DNA of 56,713 nucleotides from Defluviitaleaceae bacterium (GTDB lineage: Bacteria; Bacillota; Clostridia; Lachnospirales; WRAX01), in NCBI GenBank assembly GCA_009780485.1, contig WQZZ01000001.1, positions 1 to 56,713 of the forward strand, given 5' to 3'. Below the pieces are notes generated by a model, which saw only the letters and a list, made by a program, of their open reading frames with translations, was not told where the DNA came from and searched no databases. Below, one piece after another: positions 4,028 to 56,713 of the stretch. The stretch's first letter is position 1. Every line of letters begins with the position of its first letter. Position numbers and translations under genes: made by a program.

Positions 4028-4059
4028 AATACTCTGAAAGGTGGAAAATAAAAACTTAT

Positions 4060-4088
4060 TTGCATTTGTTTGCAAAGCCTGTTATACT
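4060..4088 (+). promoter_or_regulatory. TTGCAT-17-TATACT promoter of the M16 peptidase gene
   Basis: Consensus-like hexamers. AAGGAG RBS at about 4096..4101, ATG at 4114. Confidence 0.6.
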
Positions 4089-4113
4089 AATCCCCAAGGA
4101 GTTGATTTATTAA

Positions 4114-7024: not shown

Positions 7025-7079
7025 GGGATTGGACGGTATCGTCTGCATAAATGGGACGAGCAATGCTCGCCCCTACCAG
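7025..7079. repeat. REP-like palindromic element (core GGGACGAGCAATGCTCGCCCCTACC plus GGTATCGTCTGCATAA flank)
   Basis: Core at 7053..7077. Same about 55-nt unit as 15051..15108. Confidence 0.85.
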
Positions 7080-7152: not shown

Positions 7153-7335
7153 TTAACGCCCGCAACTTGGGCATGGTTCTCCAATTCTTTCGATTATAAG
7201 CCTGTCACCTTCAACATACACGTTTACTTTCGTGCCTTTTTCTAGGCATAGAAGGTCTCTGGCTTCTGATGGTATTACAATTCTGTTTAATTCATCGAGA
7301 ATTCTTTCTTTTAGAAATTTCTTTTTGTTTTCCAT
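7153..7335 (-). CDS. AbrB/SpoVT-type swapped-hairpin domain protein, 60 aa, C-terminal CPSC
   Basis: LDELNRIVIPSEARDLL matches the AbrB-family VDELGRVVIP.E.R motif. The second ATG (7335) was chosen for better spacing from AAAGGAG. Confidence 0.7.
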   Translation of the reverse strand: MENKKKFLKERILDELNRIVIPSEARDLLCLEKGTKVNVYVEGDRLIIERIGEPCPSCGR

Positions 7336-7552
7336 GGGCATCGCTCCTTTCTTATACCCTTTTTGTCAATAAGTGCTTGACAAGAAGACCTAAGATAGGG
7401 TACAATGTCCCTTAGGTCCTGTTTGGGGTCTGACGTGGTGCTTGCCTGGTTTCATTTGCGATGGATTAGGCAAGCACCGATTTACAGTACCCCGTTGGAA
7501 GAAATATATTAGAACTGTTTCCAGTATACGACAAAATTCTGTGGATGTCAAG
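7336..7552 (-). promoter_or_regulatory. long structured 5' leader of the AbrB-like gene (module copy A) with its promoter TTGACA-17-TATACT
   Basis: Minus-strand -35 is the reverse complement of 7546..7551; -10 is the reverse complement of 7523..7528. Nested hairpin: 7425-7432/7485-7493 and 7437-7447/7468-7478. Second hairpin: 7387-7394/7411-7418. Conserved box TTGTCAAGCA. Confidence 0.55.
7377..7406 (+). promoter_or_regulatory. antisense promoter TTGACA-18-TACAAT embedded in leader copy A
   Basis: The -10 lies in the loop of the GACCTAAG/CTTAGGTC hairpin. Geometry is the same in copies B and D. Confidence 0.55.
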
Positions 7553-7610: not shown

Positions 7611-7639
7611 TTGACAATTGGCGAATTTTGGTGTATAAT
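7611..7639 (+). promoter_or_regulatory. consensus promoter TTGACA-17-TATAAT for the small-peptide transcript
   Basis: Perfect hexamers at 7611..7616 and 7634..7639. Confidence 0.65.
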
Positions 7640-7695: not shown

Positions 7696-7809
7696 ATGTG
7701 GATTTGTGAAGTATTCAATCTGATATTTCTTGGCATTGTGGCATTTGTCACACTTGCCGATTACATAGACAGAAAGAAGAAAAGCAAACGCCGCCCTCCC
7801 GACAAGTGA
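7696..7809 (+). CDS. 37-aa hydrophobic peptide with basic tail (type I toxin-like candidate)
   Basis: MWICEVFNLIFLGIVAFVTLADYIDRKKKSKRRPPDK. AAAGGGGG RBS 7 nt upstream, own consensus promoter, and a terminator overlapping the 3' end. Confidence 0.45.
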   Translation: MWICEVFNLIFLGIVAFVTLADYIDRKKKSKRRPPDK

Positions 7810-9271: not shown

Positions 9272-11017
9272 ATGAAGCGTTGGATTTTAAGAGAACATGA
9301 TGCAGACATTGCATTAATGACAAAGGTGCTTAAAATAACTCCTGCCCTCGCCCATGTGCTGGCAGGACGTGGCATAAGAAGCAAAAATACCGCAATTAAA
9401 TACCTTGACCCCCAGCTTGCCTACCTACACCCAATGGAAGGCATGGCAGGGGTCAGCGAAGCTGTGGACATTATCAAGAAAGCCGTATCAGATGGCAAAA
9501 AAATCTGCATTTATGGGGATTATGATGTGGATGGCGTGTCTGGCACAGTTATTCTGCATAAAGCCCTGACAAAATTGGGGGCAAATGTGGATTATTACAT
9601 ACCTCACAGGGAGCGGGAAGGTTATGGACTTAACATACCCGCCGTGGAGGAATTGGCGAAGGATTTTCAGGTACTTATTGCCATTGACAATGGTATTGCG
9701 GGGGTTTCGGAGGTCGAACGGGCCGTAGAGCTTGGGCTAACCGTAATTATCATTGACCATCACAACCCGCAATTTGATGAAAACGGGGCGGAATTATTAC
9801 CTCCAGCCCATGCCATTATAAACCCAAAGCAATCGGGTTGCCCCTACCCTTTCAAAGAAATGTCAGCGGCGGGACTTGCCTACAAATTTGCAGGCCATTT
9901 AGGGGTTGCCACAGATGAAATGCTAATTTTTACCACCATGGCAACATTTTGTGACGTGGTTGATTTGGTTGACGAAAACCGCATCCTTGCTAAGAATGGA
10001 TTGCACACCCTTAATGTGCATGGCACGGAAAATGTGGGCTTGCACACCCTTGTCAAAGCTCGAAATTTGGAGTATAATGAAATTGATGATTTCGCAATGG
10101 GTTTTATAATTGGACCCTGCATCAACGCCAGCGGACGGCTGGATTCTGCTGGGATTGCGGTTGAATTGTTTTTAACACATGATGTCGGGCGGGCAAAAGA
10201 ACTTGCCCAGCAATTGGTAGACTTAAATGACAAGCGCAAAGAAATGACAACCCGCTATGTTGACGAAATTATCGGTGGTTTGCCTGATGAACTTGATGAT
10301 GTGCTGGTAATTTACAGTGAAGAAATCCACGAAAGCATTGCGGGCATTGTGGCAGGGCGGGTGAAGGAGCATGCCCACCACCCAGCTATCGTGTTTACGA
10401 AAGCTGGCGAGGTTGCGAAAGGCTCTGCCCGCTCCATAGAAGCATATAATGTTTTTGAAGCCATGTCTGCTAACAGCGATTTGTTTTTGCGTTTTGGGGG
10501 ACATCCCATGGCGGCAGGTGCAACCATGGAAATTAGCAATGTAGACATTTTGCGGAAACGGCTTAATGACGCTTCTGGGCTTACTGCTGAGGATTTTCAA
10601 CCCATTTTATACGGCGACATGGCTTTGACGCTGGAAGAAGCCATCTTCGCCCTTGCACAAGATTTGCAAGTCCTTTGTCCTTTTGGTAAAGCTAACAAAG
10701 AACCCACCTTCTTCAGCTACAACGTGACAACGGAGCGGGCAGAGGTCATTGGGCAGTCTGGACAGACATTGCGTTTGACATTTCGTTGCGAAGAAGGGCG
10801 TAAAATCAAAGCCGTGGCTTTTAAGAGCGTGGATAAATTTGCCCAGCATCTTAGCGACAATTACAGCAAAGAAGTTGCCGAGGCATTTACCACGGGCAGA
10901 CTTAAAAACATGACAATCAAGATGGATATTGCCTATAACCTGAGGATAAACACATGGCAAGGCAATTCCAGTCTGCAACTGCATATCTTGGATTTCAAAC
11001 ACCCCGCACCACGGTAG
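9272..11017 (+). CDS. recJ: single-stranded-DNA-specific exonuclease RecJ
   Basis: ORF from 9224 (TTG) trimmed to the ATG at 9272. DHH motifs: IYGDYDVDG, IAIDNG, IIIDHH and GGHPMAAG. The stop TAG at 11015..11017 lies inside a REP core. Confidence 0.9.
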   Translation: MKRWILREHDADIALMTKVLKITPALAHVLAGRGIRSKNTAIKYLDPQLAYLHPMEGMAGVSEAVDIIKKAVSDGKKICIYGDYDVDGVSGTVILHKALTKLGANVDYYIPHREREGYGLNIPAVEELAKDFQVLIAIDNGIAGVSEVERAVELGLTVIIIDHHNPQFDENGAELLPPAHAIINPKQSGCPYPFKEMSAAGLAYKFAGHLGVATDEMLIFTTMATFCDVVDLVDENRILAKNGLHTLNVHGTENVGLHTLVKARNLEYNEIDDFAMGFIIGPCINASGRLDSAGIAVELFLTHDVGRAKELAQQLVDLNDKRKEMTTRYVDEIIGGLPDELDDVLVIYSEEIHESIAGIVAGRVKEHAHHPAIVFTKAGEVAKGSARSIEAYNVFEAMSANSDLFLRFGGHPMAAGATMEISNVDILRKRLNDASGLTAEDFQPILYGDMALTLEEAIFALAQDLQVLCPFGKANKEPTFFSYNVTTERAEVIGQSGQTLRLTFRCEEGRKIKAVAFKSVDKFAQHLSDNYSKEVAEAFTTGRLKNMTIKMDIAYNLRINTWQGNSSLQLHILDFKHPAPR

Positions 11018-11060
11018 GGGCGAGCATTGCTCGTCCCAGTCCGATAAACGATGCCACATA
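11011..11060. repeat. REP-like element, opposite orientation (GGTAGGGGCGAGCATTGCTCGTCCC)
   Basis: Core at 11013..11037, with a flank related to that of 13789..13806. Confidence 0.85.
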
Positions 11061-13740: not shown

Positions 13741-13806
13741 CCGCCCCTACTGCGGTATACATTGGTAGGGGCGAGCATTGCTCGTCCCAGTCGGAATGAC
13801 GTACAC
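13741..13806. repeat. REP-like element: truncated half-core followed by a full core
   Basis: CCGCCCCTAC at 13741..13750. Full core at 13764..13788. Confidence 0.8.
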
Positions 13807-15001: not shown

Positions 15002-15005
15002 ATGC

Positions 15006-15108
15006 GGTAGGGGCGGGCATTGCCCGTCCCATGTCTGCTGGCACTATTCTTTGGGGTTGGGTGGTATCGTCTGCATAAGTGGGACGGGCAATGCCCGCCC
15101 CTACCAGT
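15006..15108. repeat. inverted pair of REP-like elements (G/C core variant)
   Basis: Cores at 15006..15030 (GGTAGGGGCGGGCATTGCCCGTCCC) and 15081..15105 (reverse orientation). Flanks ATGTCTGCTGGCAC and GGTATCGTCTGCATAAGT. Confidence 0.88.
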
Positions 15109-15167
15109 TGAGGGCGTTATAGATAAAAGTGTTATTGCAAAAAGTTCCAATTATTTTCAAAAAAAGC

Positions 15168-15408
15168 TTGACAATTACATAAACAGACTGTAAAATATAA
15201 ATAAGGGCTAAGGCAATAGCCAAATCCCTACATTCTTTTTCCTTAGTTAATGACTTGTATAAAGTTGCCTGTCTGAAAATCCCGAGAAGAAAACCCAGAC
15301 AGGCAACACCGTACAAGTCCCAAAAAGACCTGAGATAATTCTAACATCTCTCAGGTCTCATTGTCAAGCATAATTTGCTTAGACACAAATCAGAGAGGAG
15401 CATTAAAC
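15168..15408 (+). promoter_or_regulatory. promoter TTGACA-17-TAAAAT plus about 205-nt structured leader of the tandem-AbrB gene (module copy B)
   Basis: -35 at 15168..15173 and -10 at 15191..15196. Nested hairpin: 15252-15259/15312-15319 and 15264-15275/15297-15308. Second hairpin: 15326-15335/15349-15358. Box TTGTCAAGCA at 15361..15370. Confidence 0.6.
15338..15367 (-). promoter_or_regulatory. antisense promoter TTGACA-18-TAGAAT embedded in leader copy B
   Basis: Reverse complement of 15362..15367 is the -35; reverse complement of 15338..15343 is the -10. The -10 lies in the loop of the second hairpin. Confidence 0.55.
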
Positions 15409-15756
15409 ATGGAAACAATTCCAAGAAGATTGGACGATTTGGGTAAGATAATATTACCTAGCGAACTAAGAAGAAAACTAGGTCTAACTCTAGACCCATC
15501 CTCAAAAGTAACCATAACAAAGTTGGATGATGAAACAATAATTGTCCAAAAAGCAAAAGAAGGTTGTCAGTCACCCAACACAAAAGAATTAGACGACATG
15601 GGTCGCCTGCATCTAAACAAAGAATTAAGAGATAGCTTAGGATGGAACGAAAACACCTACCTAGGCGTAAACGACGACATCATGGTTATAAGACCATTAA
15701 CACCAGAACAGATAGAGCTGGTAAAGCAAAAGGAAGAAAAAAGTAAAACCAAATAA
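15409..15756 (+). CDS. protein with two tandem AbrB/SpoVT-type domains
   Basis: Start trimmed to the ATG at 15409, after GAGAGGAG. RRLDDLGKIILPSELRRKLG and a second KELDDMGRLHLNKELRDSLG. Confidence 0.7.
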   Translation: METIPRRLDDLGKIILPSELRRKLGLTLDPSSKVTITKLDDETIIVQKAKEGCQSPNTKELDDMGRLHLNKELRDSLGWNENTYLGVNDDIMVIRPLTPEQIELVKQKEEKSKTK

Positions 15757-15761
15757 ATATA

Positions 15762-15790
15762 GGTGGGGGCAAAGCCCCCACCCTATTATT
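15762..15790. terminator. bidirectional terminator GGTGGGGGC-AAA-GCCCCCACC
   Basis: Sits between the convergent AbrB-like and yigZ-like genes. T-rich on the plus side. Confidence 0.7.
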
Positions 15791-16420: not shown

Positions 16421-16475
16421 AGGCAGAAGCCCCTTTCCTTTGTAATACTCGTCTTTCCAATACCGCACAAACTAT

Positions 16476-16576
16476 GGTAGGGGCGAGCATTGCTCGTCCC
16501 ACTTATGAAGGCTATAGCGTCCAAGTCAATTAGTAGTGCCAACAGGCATAGGACGAGCAATGCTCGCCCCTACCAG
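16476..16576. repeat. inverted pair of REP-like elements (A/T core variant)
   Basis: Cores at 16476..16500 and 16550..16574. Flanks ACTTATGAAGGCTATAGCGT and GTGCCAACAGGCAT. Confidence 0.88.
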
Positions 16577-17942: not shown

Positions 17943-17981
17943 GTGCCAGCAGATATAGGGCGAGCAATGCTCGCCCCTACC
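17943..17981. repeat. REP-like element (perfect palindrome GGGCGAGCAATGCTCGCCC)
   Basis: Flank GTGCCAGCAGATAT matches the flank of the 53826 copy. Confidence 0.85.
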
Positions 17982-18005
17982 AAGCGTGATATATTCCTAA
18001 AATGG

Positions 18006-26838: not shown

Positions 26839-27038
26839 TTGACAAGCAAGCTGTGTGAAGGTATAATATACACAATCCCGCAAATTCTGCGGGTTGGCAA
26901 AAAGATACACGCTGGACGGTCAAGACTTCCAATCAAAGCCCGTCCAGCGTGTTCCAAAAGCCAAAAGGCTCAGTGATAATCTTACATTACTGAAGCCTCT
27001 TTTGTCAAGCCCTTATAAGGGCAGAGGGAGGATTTTTT
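26839..27038 (+). promoter_or_regulatory. TTGACA-17-TATAAT promoter plus about 165-nt leader with three hairpins, the third a terminator-like attenuator
   Basis: Hairpins at 26877..26893, at 26907-26919/26940-26952, and at 26966-26977/26986-26998 followed by CTTTTGTC. Then GCCCTTATAAGGGC and a GGGAGG RBS. Confidence 0.5.
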
Positions 27039-27737
27039 ATGCAGAAATTTCTGAAAAGACTTCAAGTCAAAGGTTTTGTGACAGGCGTACTAGTAACCAT
27101 ACTGCTTTCGGGAACAATGTTGGCTATGGCAAACCAAGGCGGTACAATACGAGAATTGTTTTATGGCGTAAACATTGTAGTGAATGGTCGCCCTTTACAA
27201 ACAGAGGGTATCGACCGCCCCTTTATAATGGATGGTAGGACGTTTTTGCCTGTTCGTGTTGTTTCTGAGGCTCTTAATGTGCCTGTGGAATGGGATGGCT
27301 CTACAATGACGGTGTATGTCGGAACAGGTACAACAGGAAGACCATTATTTGAAACCACACCAACTGCTTCAAGTCAGAATATAACAACCGCATCGGGAAC
27401 TATGTCAGACAGGTCATTTAATACCGTATTTAGGACATCAAGCTTTAACGCAGGTCAGAGTACAACAGGGTGGGGCGAATTTAATCTAAATGGACAATTT
27501 AGCTCCATTTCTGGAGTTCTGGGTCGCCTAAACAATGCGGCAGGCACTTCAAATATTGTCTTTATTGGTGATGGAATAGAAATAGTTAGATTTGCAGTAG
27601 ATGGAACAACTGTGGCACATGACATTTCTGTTGATGTGAGCGGGGTTCTAGTTCTCAGGATTGAAATTTTACAAGACATGGTAAACTTCGGAACACAAAG
27701 GTCTCAAGTAGGTTTTGCAAGCCCCATGTTGCACTAG
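27039..27737 (+). CDS. secreted/anchored protein: copper-amine-oxidase N-terminal-like (stalk) domain plus NPCBM-like C-terminal domain
   Basis: N-terminal TM/signal segment. VNGRPL...PFIMDGRTFLPVRVVSEALN..VEWD motif. C-terminal pattern F.L.G.F..ISG..G......V.F.GDG. Confidence 0.6.
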   Translation: MQKFLKRLQVKGFVTGVLVTILLSGTMLAMANQGGTIRELFYGVNIVVNGRPLQTEGIDRPFIMDGRTFLPVRVVSEALNVPVEWDGSTMTVYVGTGTTGRPLFETTPTASSQNITTASGTMSDRSFNTVFRTSSFNAGQSTTGWGEFNLNGQFSSISGVLGRLNNAAGTSNIVFIGDGIEIVRFAVDGTTVAHDISVDVSGVLVLRIEILQDMVNFGTQRSQVGFASPMLH

Positions 27738-27811
27738 CCTTGAATAGAGGGGAATGTCAAAAATAAAACAGAGCATCATGGTAGATACCTCACAATGATG
27801 CTCTGTTTTAT

Positions 27812-28030
27812 TCATTTTCGTTTAACTTGGTTGTAAATCTCGCTTTTAGCCACTCCCCTCTCTTTAGCGACAAGTTTCATGGCATCTTTTTCGCCACATC
27901 CTTGATTGATGAAGCTTTCAATATGTTCTTGCACATTTTCTGGATAGAAGATGCTTCGTTCCCTTATGCCTTCGACAATAATCACAAATTCCCTACGAGG
28001 GACGTTGTTTGCATAGCTGTCTAGGATAAG
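27812..28030 (-). pseudogene. orphan 3' fragment of an rsmI paralogue (last about 72 codons, no start)
   Basis: Translates to ...ILDSYANNVPRREFVIIVEG..PENVQEHI..EKDAMKLVAKERGVAKSEIYNQVKRK-stop. 50 of 73 residues match the C-terminus of rsmI at 37544..37762 in my hand alignment. Confidence 0.75.
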
Positions 28031-28031
28031 G

Positions 28032-28304
28032 TTAAAGTGGAGTTTGTATCGATTTTACTGGTTGATATACATATCGCCCATTTTCCATCAATCGAGAGTA
28101 AAGTCCTACTTCCCCCAACTGGGCATCAAGCAATAAAGTCATAGCTGGTTGGATTTCCTTTGGTTTGATGCGTAGGCAAAGTCCACACCCAGCACTTATT
28201 TGGGATGGAAGGGGCAAAACACCTACTTGTAGCTTTTGTGCAATCAAGGTTTTTTCGGCTTTCATAGCAAAGCTGGTGCTTGTAAATGTGATTATATATT
28301 CCAT
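28032..28304 (-). CDS. DUF3343 (putative Se/S carrier-like) protein
   Basis: 90 aa. F.ST..A.KAEK.L pattern and AGCGLC. GGAGTGA RBS inside the upstream gene's end. Confidence 0.7.
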   Translation of the reverse strand: MEYIITFTSTSFAMKAEKTLIAQKLQVGVLPLPSQISAGCGLCLRIKPKEIQPAMTLLLDAQLGEVGLYSRLMENGRYVYQPVKSIQTPL

Positions 28305-37257: not shown

Positions 37258-37543
37258 CCAATATTTGTTGAAAATTAGGACACTGATAAATGCGTCATAT
37301 CGACTTTTATATTACATTACGAACTAATTCAAAAAAATGTACAATCAAAAATCCCCTGCGTTGAACAACGGAGGGGATTTTGTTACATATTATGGGTTTC
37401 TACTATAAGGTTTTGAGACCAAGAACCCCATTACCACTAATAAACATAGTGGTAATGGGGGGACTATATATTTAACAGTTTAACTTAGTTAGATTATCAA
37501 AAAACAACACCATTGTTAACCCGACTAACATTGGTGTTGTTTT

Positions 37544-38368
37544 TTATTTACGTTTGACTTGATTATAGATTTCACTTTTTGACACTCCCCGCTCTTTGGC
37601 AGCAAGCTTTATAGCATCTTTTTCACTATGTCCTTGTCCCATAAAACCATTAATATGTTCTTGCACATTTTCAGGAAAATCGACAACTTGCTCAACTGCA
37701 CCTTCCACAATAATCACAAATTCCCCACGAGGGGCGGTGTCCGTGTAGCTATCTAGGATTTGGGTGAATGTTCCACGTGAAACATTCTCAAATTTTTTGG
37801 TAAGCTCTCTCACAATGGCGACTTTTCTATCACCAAGCATATCCCGCATTTCGGTAAGTACAGTTATTAGGCGGTGAGGGGCTTCATAAAACACCATTGT
37901 GCGATGCTCCGTGACAAGTCCTCCCAAAATCCTTTTGCGGTCAGATTTGTCACGGGGCAAGAAGCCTTCAAAAACATGGGGGTGTATGGTGAAGCCAGAC
38001 AACACAAGGGCAGACAGTCCCGCAGTTGCCCCAGGGCAAATGGTAACGGTTATGTCCTCGTCATGGCAGGTCTGTATCAATTCCCGCCCAGGGTCAGAAA
38101 TGCCAGGCATACCAGAATCGCTCACCAAAGCAATCTTTGCACCACCCCGCAACCGCTCTATCAGTTGCTTTCCCTTTGTTTCCTTGTTGTTTTCATGGTA
38201 GCTGGTTGTCGGGGTTTTGATTTCGTAATGATGCAAAAGTTTAGCCGTGTGTCGTGTGTCCTCGGCAGCAATCAAATCCACTTCGCCAAGTACACGCAAC
38301 ACACGCAAGGTAATATCCTCCAAATTCCCAATGGGTGTGGCACAAATATACAAAATTCCGTCAACCAT
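37544..38368 (-). CDS. rsmI: 16S rRNA (cytidine1402-2'-O)-methyltransferase
   Basis: LYICATPIGNLEDIT.R, the tetrapyrrole-methylase fold, and a C-terminal KERGVSKSEIYN tail. Confidence 0.92.
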   Translation of the reverse strand: MVDGILYICATPIGNLEDITLRVLRVLGEVDLIAAEDTRHTAKLLHHYEIKTPTTSYHENNKETKGKQLIERLRGGAKIALVSDSGMPGISDPGRELIQTCHDEDITVTICPGATAGLSALVLSGFTIHPHVFEGFLPRDKSDRKRILGGLVTEHRTMVFYEAPHRLITVLTEMRDMLGDRKVAIVRELTKKFENVSRGTFTQILDSYTDTAPRGEFVIIVEGAVEQVVDFPENVQEHINGFMGQGHSEKDAIKLAAKERGVSKSEIYNQVKRK

Positions 38369-44613: not shown

Positions 44614-44657
44614 GGGTATCGTATTCAGAATTGGGGCGGGCAATGCCCGCCCCTACC
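44614..44657. repeat. REP-like element (perfect palindrome GGGGCGGGCAATGCCCGCCCC)
   Basis: Lies between the two hypothetical membrane-protein genes. The flank GGGTATCGTATTCAGAAT is related to GGTATCGTCTGCATAA. Confidence 0.85.
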
Positions 44658-53825: not shown

Positions 53826-53950
53826 GTGCCAGCAGGCATGGGACGGGCAATGCCCGCCCCTACAATTGCGTGTTGGCAATATTGTGGGTTTTTGCACATG
53901 CGTGGTAGGGGCGGGCATTGCCCGTCCCACTTATGTAGACGATACCGTAC
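53826..53950. repeat. inverted pair of REP-like elements (G/C variant), arranged tail-to-tail, opposite to the 15006 and 16476 pairs
   Basis: Cores at 53840..53863 and 53904..53928. Flanks GTGCCAGCAGGCAT and ACTTATGTAGACGATACCGT. Confidence 0.88.
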
Positions 53951-53977
53951 AAGCCCAGGGGATGATGCCGTTAAGCA

Positions 53978-54014
53978 AAAACACCATTGCGGGGGTTGAC
54001 CCGCAATGGTGTTT
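53978..54014. terminator. bidirectional hairpin AAACACCATTGCGGG / CCCGCAATGGTGTTT
   Basis: 15-bp perfect stem. T-run on the minus-strand side (reverse complement gives GGTGTTTTTGC). Confidence 0.7.
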
Positions 54015-54035: not shown

Positions 54036-54221
54036 TTGACAAATAGACCTATGAGATGTTAGAATTATCTCAGGTCTAATGGCAGACTTGTATCATTGCC
54101 TGTCTGGGAATTCATTTGGTGTGATTATGCCAGACAGGCAACTTTTATACAAGTCTCTAACTAAGGAATATAAAGGGAATGACCCTAATTACATTTTACA
54201 GGTTGGTTTTATGTTTGTCAA
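54036..54221. ncRNA. orphan copy (D) of the AbrB-leader module: face-to-face promoters and nested hairpins, no downstream ORF
   Basis: Plus strand: TTGACA (54036..54041)-18-TAGAAT (54060..54065). Minus strand: TTGACA (rc 54216..54221)-17-TAAAAT (rc 54193..54198). Stem 54085-54092/54147-54154 plus an inner stem. Aligns along its length with the reverse complement of 15168..15370. Confidence 0.55.
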
Positions 54222-54329: not shown

Positions 54330-54599
54330 CTAGACATTTACAGAAACTTCCTCTACATCTATGAATTCTTCCACAACTTCTAAGAGTTGTTTAGGTGACA
54401 ATTGTTGTTCTGTAAACTTTTTCGCCAAATTATGTACAAATACTGAATTTACGCTAATATCTAGCACTTGTTGGGCAACTTCACCATTGACAAGGGCTTG
54501 TAAACCGTACGTTCTTGCTGGTTCTCCACATTCTTTAATCACCTCTTGAAAGACCACATTATACACAACTGCCGTGTTCACTTTTTGTTCAATTGTCAT
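54330..54599 (-). CDS. hypothetical acidic 89-aa protein downstream of sigF
   Basis: Start trimmed to the ATG at 54599, after AAGGAGG. No motif recognised. Confidence 0.5.
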   Translation of the reverse strand: MTIEQKVNTAVVYNVVFQEVIKECGEPARTYGLQALVNGEVAQQVLDISVNSVFVHNLAKKFTEQQLSPKQLLEVVEEFIDVEEVSVNV

Positions 54600-54624: not shown

Positions 54625-55380
54625 TCATTGTGATAACTTATCACGCAATGTTTTTAAGACCCGCTTTTCAATGCGGCTTACCTGCACTTGGCTCACACCA
54701 ATGGCCTGTGCAATTTGACTCTGTGTTTTGTCTTGAAAGTACCTCATTACAATAACCTGACGTTCTCTAGCGTCCAATTGACTGATAATTTCACGTAGGG
54801 CAATCTTATCAATCATTCTTTCGCTCTGGTCTTCTCCCATCACCTCCAATTTGTCTAGCAAATACACTGGTCCGCCATCGCCCTGATGTACAACAGCGTG
54901 TAGGCTTTCCACATCGCTTGCTGCATCCATTGCGTGGGCAAGTTCTTCCACGTCAATTTCTAGGGCTTTGGCAATTTCGGCAACACTCGGCACTTTTCCA
55001 GTGGACTGTTGTAAACTTTCTTGAATATATCTTGCCTTAATGGCAAGTTCTTTTAAGGGGCGACTGACTTTTATCATCCCGTCGTCCCGTAAAAACCGCT
55101 TAATTTCGCCCATTATCATGGGTACGGCATAGGTAGAGAATTTTACGCCAAAACTTATGTCAAATTTATCAATGCACTTCATCAGTCCTATTGCACCTAT
55201 TTGAAACAGGTCTTCCAGCTCGTAGCCACGTCCTGCAAAACGCTTAACCACAGACCAGACCAAGCCTGTATTTTCAGTAACCAAGGTGTCCCTTGCCAAA
55301 CTGTCGCCGTTTTGGCTGGCGGCTATTAGCTCCAATGTCCTGTCGTGGGTTCTGTCTAAGGTTTTTTCCATTGGGTTCAC
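54625..55380 (-). CDS. sigF: sporulation sigma factor SigF
   Basis: Sigma-70 regions 2-4: LVWSVV.RF, DLFQIG.IGL.K..D.F, and a Q.ISQVQVSR HTH. Position after spoIIAB. Confidence 0.93.
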   Translation of the reverse strand: MNPMEKTLDRTHDRTLELIAASQNGDSLARDTLVTENTGLVWSVVKRFAGRGYELEDLFQIGAIGLMKCIDKFDISFGVKFSTYAVPMIMGEIKRFLRDDGMIKVSRPLKELAIKARYIQESLQQSTGKVPSVAEIAKALEIDVEELAHAMDAASDVESLHAVVHQGDGGPVYLLDKLEVMGEDQSERMIDKIALREIISQLDARERQVIVMRYFQDKTQSQIAQAIGVSQVQVSRIEKRVLKTLRDKLSQ

Positions 55381-55383
55381 TCC

Positions 55384-55809
55384 TTAGACCATTTTTTTGT
55401 GCATCTTGACAATTGTCCCGCTTGGGCTGGACTGGACTTGTAAGTCGTCCATGAACTCTGACATTACCGTGAAACCCATGCCCGACCGCTCCTCGTCTGG
55501 TTTGCTTGTGTATAGAGGTTCGAGGGCTTGTTCTATATTTGGTATGCCTCTACCAAAATCTTCAACTTCTATGTAAATTTCACGGTTTGTGGTTAAATGG
55601 CAACGCATGGTTACAAAGCAATCTGTTTCTACGCCCTCATAGCCGTGTATCATGGCGTTTGTGACGGCTTCGCTTACAGCGGTTTTGATTTCGTTTATCT
55701 CCGCCACAGTGGGGTCTAGCTGGCTGGCAAAGGCGGCGGCTGTTGCCCTTGCGAAGGATTGGTTTTCGCTAATGGCGAGGAAGGTTAGGTTCATTTGGTT
55801 CTCTGTCAT
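55384..55809 (-). CDS. spoIIAB: anti-sigma F factor (serine kinase) SpoIIAB
   Basis: 141 aa. E.V.NA..H N-box and DFGRGI, SGMGF G-boxes. Confidence 0.93.
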   Translation of the reverse strand: MTENQMNLTFLAISENQSFARATAAAFASQLDPTVAEINEIKTAVSEAVTNAMIHGYEGVETDCFVTMRCHLTTNREIYIEVEDFGRGIPNIEQALEPLYTSKPDEERSGMGFTVMSEFMDDLQVQSSPSGTIVKMHKKMV

Positions 55810-55812
55810 GGT

Positions 55813-56160
55813 TTACATTCCCCTCCCGCTCTCGCTTTCAATTTCATCAATGCCTGCAAAACAAGGGATTATTTTACGCAAGCCCGAAATGTCAAAAATT
55901 CTGCTTATCTCTGGACCGATGTTTATGGCAAAGACCCGCCCGCCTGTTTTTTGTAGCTCTTTGTAGCGTCCAATTACCATGCCTATGCCAGAGCTGTCCA
56001 TGAAGCCCACATGGGCAAAATCGAAAACAATGTTTTTGGCGGTGCTTTCTGAAAATTCATCTTCAAGGCTTTTTCGTATCTTGTCGGCGGTGTGATGGTC
56101 AATCTCACCTCTTATCTTGGCGATTAAATTTCCGTTTCGTTCTACAAATTGTATGTCCAA
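55813..56160 (-). CDS. spoIIAA: anti-sigma F factor antagonist SpoIIAA (STAS domain)
   Basis: TTG start 6 nt after GGAGGAG. GE.D..TA and the phosphorylatable FMDSSG motif. Confidence 0.92.
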   Translation of the reverse strand: MDIQFVERNGNLIAKIRGEIDHHTADKIRKSLEDEFSESTAKNIVFDFAHVGFMDSSGIGMVIGRYKELQKTGGRVFAINIGPEISRIFDISGLRKIIPCFAGIDEIESESGRGM

Positions 56161-56253: not shown

Positions 56254-56713
56254 CAATGCAAGCACTTTTTGTAATTTTTTTCAACTTTTTTCGGAGATTT
56301 TGAAATATGCTCTGTCAGTAGCAATTATGTGGGTATATAAATTGGTGAAATTTGTAGTTAGAAATATTTTCTGATTGCTTATTTTAATTATTAACTTAAA
56401 GTACACTTGGGTTACATTTTCCATTATAGCATATAATTTTATAATTGCAAGCATTATTTTTTATTTTTCCACCTTTTTTAGTATTTTGTGATTTTTAGCG
56501 ACAATAATATACATGAAACGATAATAGGGGCCGTGAAATTTATACCCAGTAGTTTGTTTAGATATTAACAATTATAGCAAATATTCCCACGATTGCAAGT
56601 ACTATTTCATATTTTTTTCATTTATCTGGTATTCTTGGAATTTATACTGGCAATAATATACACGAGACGATTAGAGGGGTGTATAAATTGGGAAAATTCG
56701 TGATTGAGAACAA
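56254..56713 (+). repeat. three tandem degenerate copies (about 190, 147 and more than 123 bp) of an AT-rich promoter/5'-leader module
   Basis: Each unit starts (C/A)A(T)TGCAAG(C/T)A. Each ends with a G-rich RBS-like box plus (T/G)TG..AAATT. Only the third unit continues as an open frame (MGKFVIEN...) to the window edge. Confidence 0.6.

Follow-up and report, generated by a model that had tools for sequence, protein, structure and literature searches.

The stretch of DNA considered here (the window; 56,713 nucleotides of contig WQZZ01000001.1) comes from a termite-gut metagenome, in which it falls in a Defluviitaleaceae genome bin. At 15409..15756 of its + strand lies a gene for a tandem-domain protein of the AbrB/SpoVT type (115 residues; Pfam PF04014 and MraZ, NCBIfam TIGR01439), which is monocistronic and is followed on its 3′ side by a terminator at 15762–15782. 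The region upstream of this gene is one copy, copy B, of a cassette in which two putative promoters face each other across a long, structured leader. P1 (15168..15196, + strand; TTGACA-17-TAAAAT, 11/12 match) resembles a strong sigma-A-type promoter and has an A-run directly on its 5′ side. P2 (15367..15338, − strand; TTGACA-18-TAGAAT, 11/12 match) would be a second promoter on the opposite strand, with its −35 at 15367..15362, its −10 (TAGAAT) at 15343..15338 and a TG preceding the −10. A promoter scan found no second promoter-like site on the + strand between P1 and the ATG at 15409, in agreement with a first-pass annotation of this DNA, which had seen no promoter next to the ribosome-binding site of the gene. 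By the usual +7 rule, transcription is predicted to start at ~15203 (+) and ~15331 (−); the resulting distance of ~128 nucleotides (nt) bears out the ~130 nt suggested at that stage. Promoter matches of at least 11/12 number 16 in the window, against 1.7 in simulated sequence, and 7 of the 16 fall in its four cassette copies (A, B, C and a divergent copy, D).

The leader of copy B is predicted to fold into a series of hairpins, and its elements lie where the first-pass annotation had placed them, save that the loop of the largest hairpin is 20 nt long and not 21. A 5′ hairpin (15204..15229, +; AGGG..GGC/GCC..CCCU, from the fold) is shared by the copy-B subfamily alone. On the − strand the same sequence reads as a hairpin followed by a U-rich tract, with a terminator-like call at 15221..15206, and is a possible second stop for an antisense RNA. 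The big, two-tier hairpin (15252..15319), the region of sense/antisense complementarity, consists of an outer stem (15252–15259 with 15312–15319) and an inner stem (15264–15275 with 15296–15307) that closes the 20-nt loop. In hairpin 2 (15326..15358, +), AGACCTGAGA at 15326–15335 pairs with TCTCAGGTCT at 15349–15358, and the P2 −10 sits within the 13-nt loop. The box TTGTCAAGCA follows at 15361–15370 (+), its opposite strand being the P2 −35, and in the fold it pairs with a downstream partner to form hairpin 3 of the sense leader (15361..15387, +). The whole leader folds at −70.1 kcal/mol, compared with −35.5 ± 4.4 kcal/mol for shuffled sequences (z = −7.9). In the minimum-energy fold of copy B a UUCCUU segment (15239–15244) pairs with the Shine–Dalgarno sequence GAGGAG; pairing of this kind was dropped as a general mechanism because, on inspection by eye, the segment is missing even in close copy-B orthologues.

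The distribution of the cassette was followed with an exact-pattern scan of one genome per species and a separate metagenome scan. Among the species genomes, true copies occur in only two Defluviitaleaceae bins (15 in one, 4 in the other), both obtained from gut compartment P1 of Labiotermes labralis, a soil-feeding termite (PMC7024585). The metagenome scan gave 94 loci, almost all of them from four or five termite-gut datasets. Eighteen pattern matches that lack the big hairpin were left out as chance matches (L004, L006, L011, L014, L016, L023, L027, L034, L043, L048, L057, L064, L067, L088, L106, L118, L120 and L121), after which 85 distinct copies remained. A covariance model and a search with it, as the first-pass annotation had envisaged, recovered copy D and brought the total to 90 distinct rows. 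All of the ~85–90 distinct copies are from termite-gut Defluviitaleaceae. The earlier view that the leader belongs to no recognised RNA family also stands: Rfam 15 at gathering thresholds gave no match anywhere in the window, and a permissive E-value search of 15100–15450 returned only chance-level eukaryotic snoRNA and miRNA families (best score 20.9 bits against a cut-off of 100). The module has no blastn match in plasmid and phage collections, a pattern scan of viral contigs gave one chance match only, and word-indexed searches with the AbrB-like proteins of copies A and B found only close relatives in Defluviitaleaceae bins.

In every complete copy the elements follow one another in a fixed order on the sense strand: an A-run comes first, then P1 and a variable segment of 35–60 nt, often holding a 5′ hairpin, and after this segment the big hairpin, hairpin 2 and the box. 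A further A-run lies between the outer and inner stems of the big hairpin, and the sense leader is 170–200 nt long. Downstream classes were assigned by automatic open reading frame (ORF) and terminator detection and adjusted after inspection. In ~50 of the 75 classifiable copies the box is followed by hairpin 3, a ribosome-binding site and an ORF of the AbrB/SpoVT type, while 11–13 copies carry an intrinsic terminator in place of the gene and are termed orphans. Ten copies are truncated by contig ends, and the remainder precede visibly decayed genes (ATG to ATT, premature stops, internal deletions). A few cassettes precede unrelated genes, coding for a Cu_amine_oxidN1-domain protein, a membrane protein and a 98-residue protein. 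The orientation of the cassette relative to the gene is constant. The divergence of the cassette correlates with that of the protein (Spearman 0.37), which suggests that whole units were duplicated and then drifted. As judged from these sequences, the cassette forms a family of high copy number that is specific to this lineage and now and then stands before non-AbrB genes.

Both promoters are conserved across this family, in support of the earlier proposals of a long leader transcribed from a distal promoter and of a second strong promoter facing back into it. All 75 complete copies have a P1 that scores at least 10/12, and its spacer is 17 base pairs (bp) long in 72 of them. P2 consists of an exact TTGACA and a −10 matching at least 5/6 at 16–18 bp in 69 of 85 copies; its −10 hexamers are TATAAT (32), TAGAAT (21), TATACT (10) and TACAAT (4), such that T1, A2 and T6 are constant and the third position varies. 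In divergent copies that fall outside the search pattern the hairpin-2 loop also carries TATAAT, and some of these copies have an extended TG as well. The predicted P1 and P2 start sites lie a median of 120 nt apart (range 85–138). By prediction only, the leader thus contains two face-to-face promoters giving overlapping, complementary RNAs. In the window, P2 was not found to lead into any protein-coding gene, and its transcripts would reach terminator-like sites within 250 nt. A third promoter was considered for the sense TTGACA that pairs with the box; in the copies inspected by eye it has no properly spaced −10, and for this reason it is regarded as a pairing partner and not as a promoter. 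In some copies (L024 ~1815–1835, L026 ~2725–2745 and L017 662–681) the P1 −35 lies inside a short G+C-rich hairpin, followed on the P2 strand by a run of 6–8 U (e.g. GCTCTTGTTTTGTCAAGGGC TTTTTTGTTG). This is a canonical terminator, which would halt antisense transcription exactly at the cassette boundary.

Covariation was judged on the covariance-model alignment, against 500 shuffles and against partners slid out of register. On this alignment 96.4% of cells are paired, and double changes occur in 10 of the 17 modelled base pairs (132 cells), a result equalled by none of the 500 shuffles; with slid partners, pairing falls to 19–48%. Compensatory changes support both hairpins. In copy D and three other copies (L033b, L075b and L044b) the inner stems are entirely different in sequence and still pair, and the half-sites of hairpin 2 change jointly in divergent copies, to GGCT/AGCC (copy D) or AGCC/GGCT. 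All 48 gene-linked copies form hairpin 3, in which the box pairs with (C)TTGACA(A) on its downstream side; a mean of 7.8 of 11 nt are paired, compared with 4.6 in shuffles. The first-pass annotation had argued for selection on structure and against recent duplication, and these figures uphold that argument. The observation is confirmed as real and well beyond chance.

Wobble pairs indicate the strand on which each hairpin is selected. In the inner stem, 25 non-Watson–Crick cells, spread over 6 stem variants, read C–A in the sense RNA and hence G–U in the P2 RNA, and sense-strand G–U is found in 2 cells only. The A-run on the 5′ side of the inner stem, which is at least 90% conserved, becomes, on the P2 strand, a U-run that follows the hairpin; at least 5 U within 8 nt are found there in 63 of 77 copies, centred at ~+63 of the predicted RNA. 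The inner stem is G+C-rich and 11–13 bp long. We read these features as a sign of selection on the inner hairpin to serve an antisense RNA as its stem-loop and terminator. In hairpin 2 the wobbles favour the sense strand, as in the G–U closing pair GGACCU..AGGUCU of 20 distinct copies, and hairpins 2 and 3 are, on the same reading, probably selected in the sense leader. By whole-region fold energy, 72 of 79 copies are more stable as the P2 strand, a comparison confounded by the G+U richness of that strand; per-pair wobble counts were preferred for this reason. Hairpin 2 was also considered as an efficient terminator of sense transcription. The terminator scanner did not call it, it is followed by a weak U-tract (UnUUUGU) only, and in orphans a separate strong terminator comes after it; sense read-through past hairpin 2 seems to be the rule.

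The recurrence of the architecture elsewhere in the window had been recognised in the first-pass annotation for copies A and C. Both are found to share the organisation of copy B in the opposite orientation; the bounds of copy A are 7377..7551, in place of 7336..7552, and copy D is an addition. Copy A (sense strand −; covariance-model score 100.5 bits) has P1 at 7551..7523 (−), P2 at 7377..7406 (+), hairpin 2 at 7386–7419 and the big hairpin at 7425–7493, with stem sequences unlike those of copy B and their pairing retained. It precedes a single-domain AbrB-type gene (7153..7341, −) for a protein of 60–62 residues with a C-terminal CPSCGR. Just downstream of copy A, on its P2 side, a 37-codon ORF (7696..7809; MWICEVFNLIFLGIVAFVTLADYIDRKKKSKRRPPDK) follows a perfect promoter (TTGACA-17-TATAAT at 7611, +); the product of this ORF has a hydrophobic helix and a basic tail, resembles a small membrane protein or type I toxin and has no Pfam match. 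Copy C (54036..54221, −; 106 bits) has P1 at 54221..54193 (−), P2 at 54036..54065 (+), hairpin 2 at 54045–54077 and the big hairpin at 54085–54155. It is an orphan: directly after the box comes an intrinsic terminator (53975..54012, −; a hairpin of −22.3 kcal/mol and then a T-run), which would end the sense RNA right behind the box, and no gene follows. The window therefore holds two AbrB-like genes at these modules and not the three that had been assumed. Copy C lies immediately downstream of, and convergent with, a sporulation operon on the − strand comprising spoIIAA (55813..56160), spoIIAB (55384..55809) and sigF (54625..55380), after which comes a DUF6514 gene (~54330..54599).

Copy D (26839..27010, +; 37.4 bits, E = 4.5e-7) has P1 at 26839..26867 (+; TTGACA-17-TATAAT), an inner stem at 26907–26919 and 26940–26952, a hairpin 2 at 26967–26975 and 26988–26997, in which GGCT/AGCC replaces GACC/GGTC, and a box at 27002–27010. 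The gene on its 3′ side (27039..27737, +) encodes a non-AbrB protein of 232 residues with a copper amine oxidase N-terminal-like domain (Cu_amine_oxidN1, Pfam PF07833). The neighbours of the cassette units in the window are housekeeping genes. A palindromic repeat, GGTAGGGGCGRGCATTGCYCGTCCCA, resembling repetitive extragenic palindromic (REP) elements, occurs at eight or more intergenic sites, often as inverted pairs 35–50 nt apart (7052–7078, 11012–11038, 13763–13789, 15005–15031 / 15080–15106, 16475–16500 / 16551–16575, 17958–17983, 44632–44657 and 53839–53863 / 53905–53929). It adjoins copies A, B and C and is present too at related loci such as L002, L044 and L071; a separate REP-like repeat, beginning CCGTCATTGCGAGGGACGTTCCTACG, flanks orphan cassettes of the bin Lab288P1bin76. 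The window has three other repeats. A 73-nt stretch is duplicated at 2423–2495 and 4040–4112 (82% identity) and resembles a promoter (TTGCAT-17-TATACT) with a ribosome-binding site; the second copy lies directly 5′ of an M16-family peptidase gene (4114), and the first has no obvious forward gene. Direct repeats of 45 nt (56486–56530 and 56635–56679; 78% identity, 149 nt apart) lie in the very AT-rich, non-coding end of the window. Repeated stretches of 137 and 68 nt at 27808–28036 and 37540–37768 (77–81% identity, 9.7 kb apart) are probably paralogous coding sequence.

The proteins encoded behind the cassette take three forms, of ~60 residues ending in CPxCGR, of 100–130 residues with tandem domains and of ~76 residues with a Cys-rich tail, and their mean column identity is 24%. 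A Pfam scan of 30 members at E ≤ 0.01 matched only PF04014 (22 of 30) and MraZ (9 of 30). The two window proteins score above the gathering threshold of PF04014 and match TIGR01439, and profile matches link the encoded proteins to structures of AbrB, Abh and the SpoVT N-domain (PDB 2k1n, 1z0r, 2fy9 and 2ro5; E = 1e-8 to 1e-10 for the last three). SymE_toxin was matched by none of the 30 members, nor by the two window proteins at E ≤ 1. The encoded proteins share the N-terminal swapped-hairpin DNA-binding domain of the abrB, abh and spoVT products of Bacillus subtilis, which is a spore-former, as is the present host to judge from the spoIIAA–spoIIAB–sigF operon in the window. B. subtilis AbrB differs from them in that they include tandem-domain and Cys-rich-tail forms. 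In B. subtilis, abrB is controlled by Spo0A boxes and by autorepression, and we know of no antisense RNA or long structured leader for this gene. Control by Spo0A was considered for the cassette and found to be unsupported: TTCGACA is missing in the window copies, and the leader box TTGTCAAGC agrees with the 0A box TGTCGAA at 5 of 7 positions. A perfect Spo0A-box-like TTCGACA (TGTCGAA on the other strand) lies ~29 nt 5′ of the P1 −35 at L003, L005, L010 and L019, all of them orphan cassettes of Lab288P1bin76, and the gene-linked loci L022 and L026 have the variant TTTGACAAG at this position.

Taken together, it is somewhat more probable than its negation that the region is one copy of a self-contained, cis-acting sense/antisense cassette controlling the gene of a small AbrB/SpoVT-type regulator. 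P1 would yield an mRNA comprising the leader and the gene, and P2 a short RNA of ~65–80 nt in most copies. In copy B, because its U-run is weak, the P2 RNA could reach ~135 nt. This RNA would begin with 5′ AGGUCU and be fully complementary to the big hairpin of the sense leader. In most copies it probably ends at the inner hairpin and U-run, and for that reason P2 would make a discrete antisense RNA and not merely a colliding polymerase. Contact between the two RNAs would begin at the apical loops, which are long and differ among copies, and the resulting duplex would lower the output of the AbrB-like protein via RNase III-type cleavage or destabilisation, with pausing at hairpin 2 as a possible aid. 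P2 would in turn be dampened by transcription that runs over it from P1, and the combined effects may produce a mutually exclusive, switch-like output; such a switch function we infer from sequence. Since both stems and loops differ among paralogues, each of the 15 or more copies of a genome would be under the control of its own antisense RNA, with no cross-talk. Orphans with a terminator directly after the box would be non-coding sense/antisense pairs left by gene decay.

Several points weigh against this interpretation. The predicted P2 RNA starts ~78 nt 5′ of the ATG and runs away from it, overlapping the mRNA in the distal leader only and leaving the ribosome-binding site uncovered, and consequently the step at which repression would occur is not obvious. 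The loop of the inner hairpin, at ~20 nt, is longer than the 3–8 nt of canonical intrinsic terminators, the terminator scanner did not call this hairpin on the P2 strand, and the U-run of copy B is weak (CUUUAUAC). The wobble asymmetry of the inner stem rests on few independent stem variants (6 versus 2), and the wobbles of the outer stem show no strand bias (19 versus 21). The apparent invariance of GACCT, AGGTCT and TTGTCAAGC is partly imposed by the search patterns. Finally, in one bin ~10 near-identical, recently duplicated orphans have a poor P2 −10 (GTTAAT or TATCCT) and keep hairpin 2 and the box intact, so that these elements may have a role independent of P2.

This last point bears on a reading in which the sense leader alone is functional, as a structured 5′ untranslated region or small RNA whose hairpin 2 and box are recognised by a protein or ligand, and P2 is a by-product. 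The G–U pairs of hairpins 2 and 3 favour the sense strand, as such a reading would have it; the orphans with a degraded P2 −10 keep P1, hairpin 2 and the box and, with their sense terminator, look like small-RNA genes, and a semi-conserved purine-rich motif (e.g. ACAAAG or GAAAAG) lies on the sense strand in the loop of the big hairpin. A by-product is, however, hardly expected to keep TAnAAT at 16–18 bp from TTGACA in 69 of 85 copies, with the critical T1, A2 and T6 constant and only the third position of the hexamer varying. The wobbles of the inner stem and the conserved U-run indicate the opposite strand, and the A-run has no obvious role in a sense RNA, leaving this reading unlikely. Another places the function of hairpin 2 in the DNA: AGACCT-N21/22-AGGTCT would be a double-stranded operator controlling P2 and acting as a roadblock to P1, bound by the AbrB-like protein or a putative common regulator, and the hairpin would be incidental. 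The inverted repeat does bracket the P2 −10, a classic operator position, AbrB-type proteins bind DNA, and the half-sites are highly alike across copies with diverged proteins; yet the search pattern partly imposed this likeness, and in the copies found by the covariance model both sides have changed together. Pairing also reaches past the half-sites, with variable compensating sequences and bulges, and mismatches are G–T on one strand only, which matters to an RNA and is irrelevant to a symmetric operator. The first-pass annotation had listed an operator hairpin among possible roles. The joint change of the half-sites in divergent copies speaks for a sense RNA hairpin and against a fixed DNA operator, and an operator function in place of the RNA is considered decidedly improbable, although an operator role could exist alongside that of the RNA.

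The same anatomy would also fit a selfish module resembling a type I toxin–antitoxin system, in which the AbrB-fold protein is harmful and the P2 RNA is the antitoxin. There is a precedent in SymE/SymR, where an AbrB-fold protein is checked by a cis-antisense RNA (PMC1891008). The copy number of at least 15 per genome bin, the very fast divergence of the proteins (the column identity given above), the monocistronic genes with no gene for a partner protein and the many pseudogenes and orphans, with ATG to ATT changes and internal deletions in a birth-and-death pattern typical of such loci, all point the same way. The probability of this account is nevertheless put low, as the proteins match classical DNA-binding AbrB/Abh/SpoVT domains and none matches SymE_toxin, the antisense RNA would leave the ribosome-binding site and start codon uncovered (unlike SymR), the cassette precedes unrelated genes too, and its copies lie among housekeeping genes, outside mobile or defence islands. 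High copy number could also reflect a miniature mobile repeat, of the MITE (miniature inverted-repeat transposable element) or REP type, that spreads between genes and has promoter-like ends by chance. Ten copies end at contig ends, a sign of assembly breaks at a repeat, REP-like palindromes stand beside copies A, B and C, and the −35 regions of P1 and P2 are inverted copies of each other over a short length (CTTGACAA / TTGTCAAG). That inverted sequence, on the other hand, is shared over only ~9 nt, where a dozen or more would be expected, and is the −35 hexamer itself; the ends of orphan units are the A/T runs of terminators. The unvarying orientation to the gene, the co-divergence with it, which fits whole-unit duplication, and the lack of similarity to plasmids or phages tell the same way, and old, highly diverged copies keep their promoters and pairing, indicating selection on function. 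A mobile repeat is therefore held to be very improbable. Least credible, to the point of being negligible, is the proposal that conservation reflects a 71-codon ORF on the minus strand (15101..15316) for a small hydrophobic protein. The frame is open in copy B and gives a weak, sub-threshold MreD-like match (E = 0.027), but it has a TTG start and no ribosome-binding site, is not kept in copies A and C, and is interrupted by stops or frameshifts in most close copy-B relatives; this broken frame refutes the ORF, which the first-pass annotation had rightly rejected.

For the preferred sense/antisense cassette the principle is known, from plasmid countertranscripts, from prgQ/prgX and from SymE/SymR. 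The countertranscripts of pT181, pIP501/pAMbeta1 and pMV158 (RNAII) and the prgQ/prgX pair of pCF10 arise from face-to-face promoters that lie within a leader, 100–230 bp apart. They are short, stem-loop-rich antisense RNAs with their own terminator, their specificity is set by loop–loop recognition, and their output is switch-like or bistable. They control genes for plasmid replication or conjugation by inducing a strong attenuator in the sense leader. The convergent leader promoters predicted here resemble those of pT181, pIP501 and prgQ/prgX; in contrast, the genes concerned are chromosomal AbrB-like regulators, no strong sense attenuator is seen, hairpin 2 having a weak U-tract only, and blastn shows no sequence similarity to plasmids. 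Like the structured RNAs of Rfam, including termite-gut motifs, the sense leader is conserved and covaries, while matching no family.

In Escherichia coli, the AbrB-fold protein SymE is kept in check by SymR, a cis-antisense RNA, in a type I toxin–antitoxin system; SymR is transcribed from a promoter within the symE ORF and spans both the start codon and the ribosome-binding site (Kawano, Aravind & Storz 2007; PMC1891008). The cassette shares with this system a small protein of the AbrB/MazE fold whose synthesis would be limited by a short, here predicted, antisense RNA, a constitutive-looking antisense promoter in the 5′ part of the same locus, and a monocistronic gene with no partner protein. 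It differs in that the antisense RNA lies 45–80 nt 5′ of the ribosome-binding site, in a long structured leader; the proteins have classical AbrB/SpoVT DNA-binding domains and fall outside the SymE family; the host is a Firmicute and not a proteobacterium, with many paralogues per genome; and no control of the LexA type is evident. No earlier description seems to exist of the cassette, of how it is built, of its association with an expanded AbrB-like family or of the number of its copies.

If this model is right, the cassette is a portable unit of ~200 bp containing a promoter, a structured leader, an antisense promoter and terminators on both strands, reused dozens of times in one lineage, mostly for fast-evolving AbrB-type regulators. 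Few chromosomal cis-antisense switches of Firmicutes are well characterised, and the cassette would contribute to them a large RNA family supported by covariation; it would also carry the SymE/SymR idea to a distant phylum in a different geometry. The many natural variants, which put different stems and loops on one scaffold, would offer a ready test of how antisense specificity is encoded and of its orthogonality. A bolder proposal, to which only a modest chance is given, is that each termite-gut Defluviitaleaceae genome contains 15 or more mutually insulated antisense toggle switches, each gating a different, rapidly diversifying AbrB-type DNA-binding protein. Every copy would then have its own stem and loop ‘address’, and across the population the paralogues could be expressed stochastically and combinatorially, so that one reusable cassette would give an RNA-based heterogeneity of phenotype, or bet-hedging. 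The orphans would serve as RNA sponges or decoys. In a sharper variant, should some of the AbrB-fold proteins be toxins, this would be the first SymE-like type I toxin–antitoxin family in Firmicutes. The cassette also draws attention to the expansion, so far unexplained, that AbrB-like proteins have undergone in a group of termite-gut bacteria that is abundant yet uncultured.

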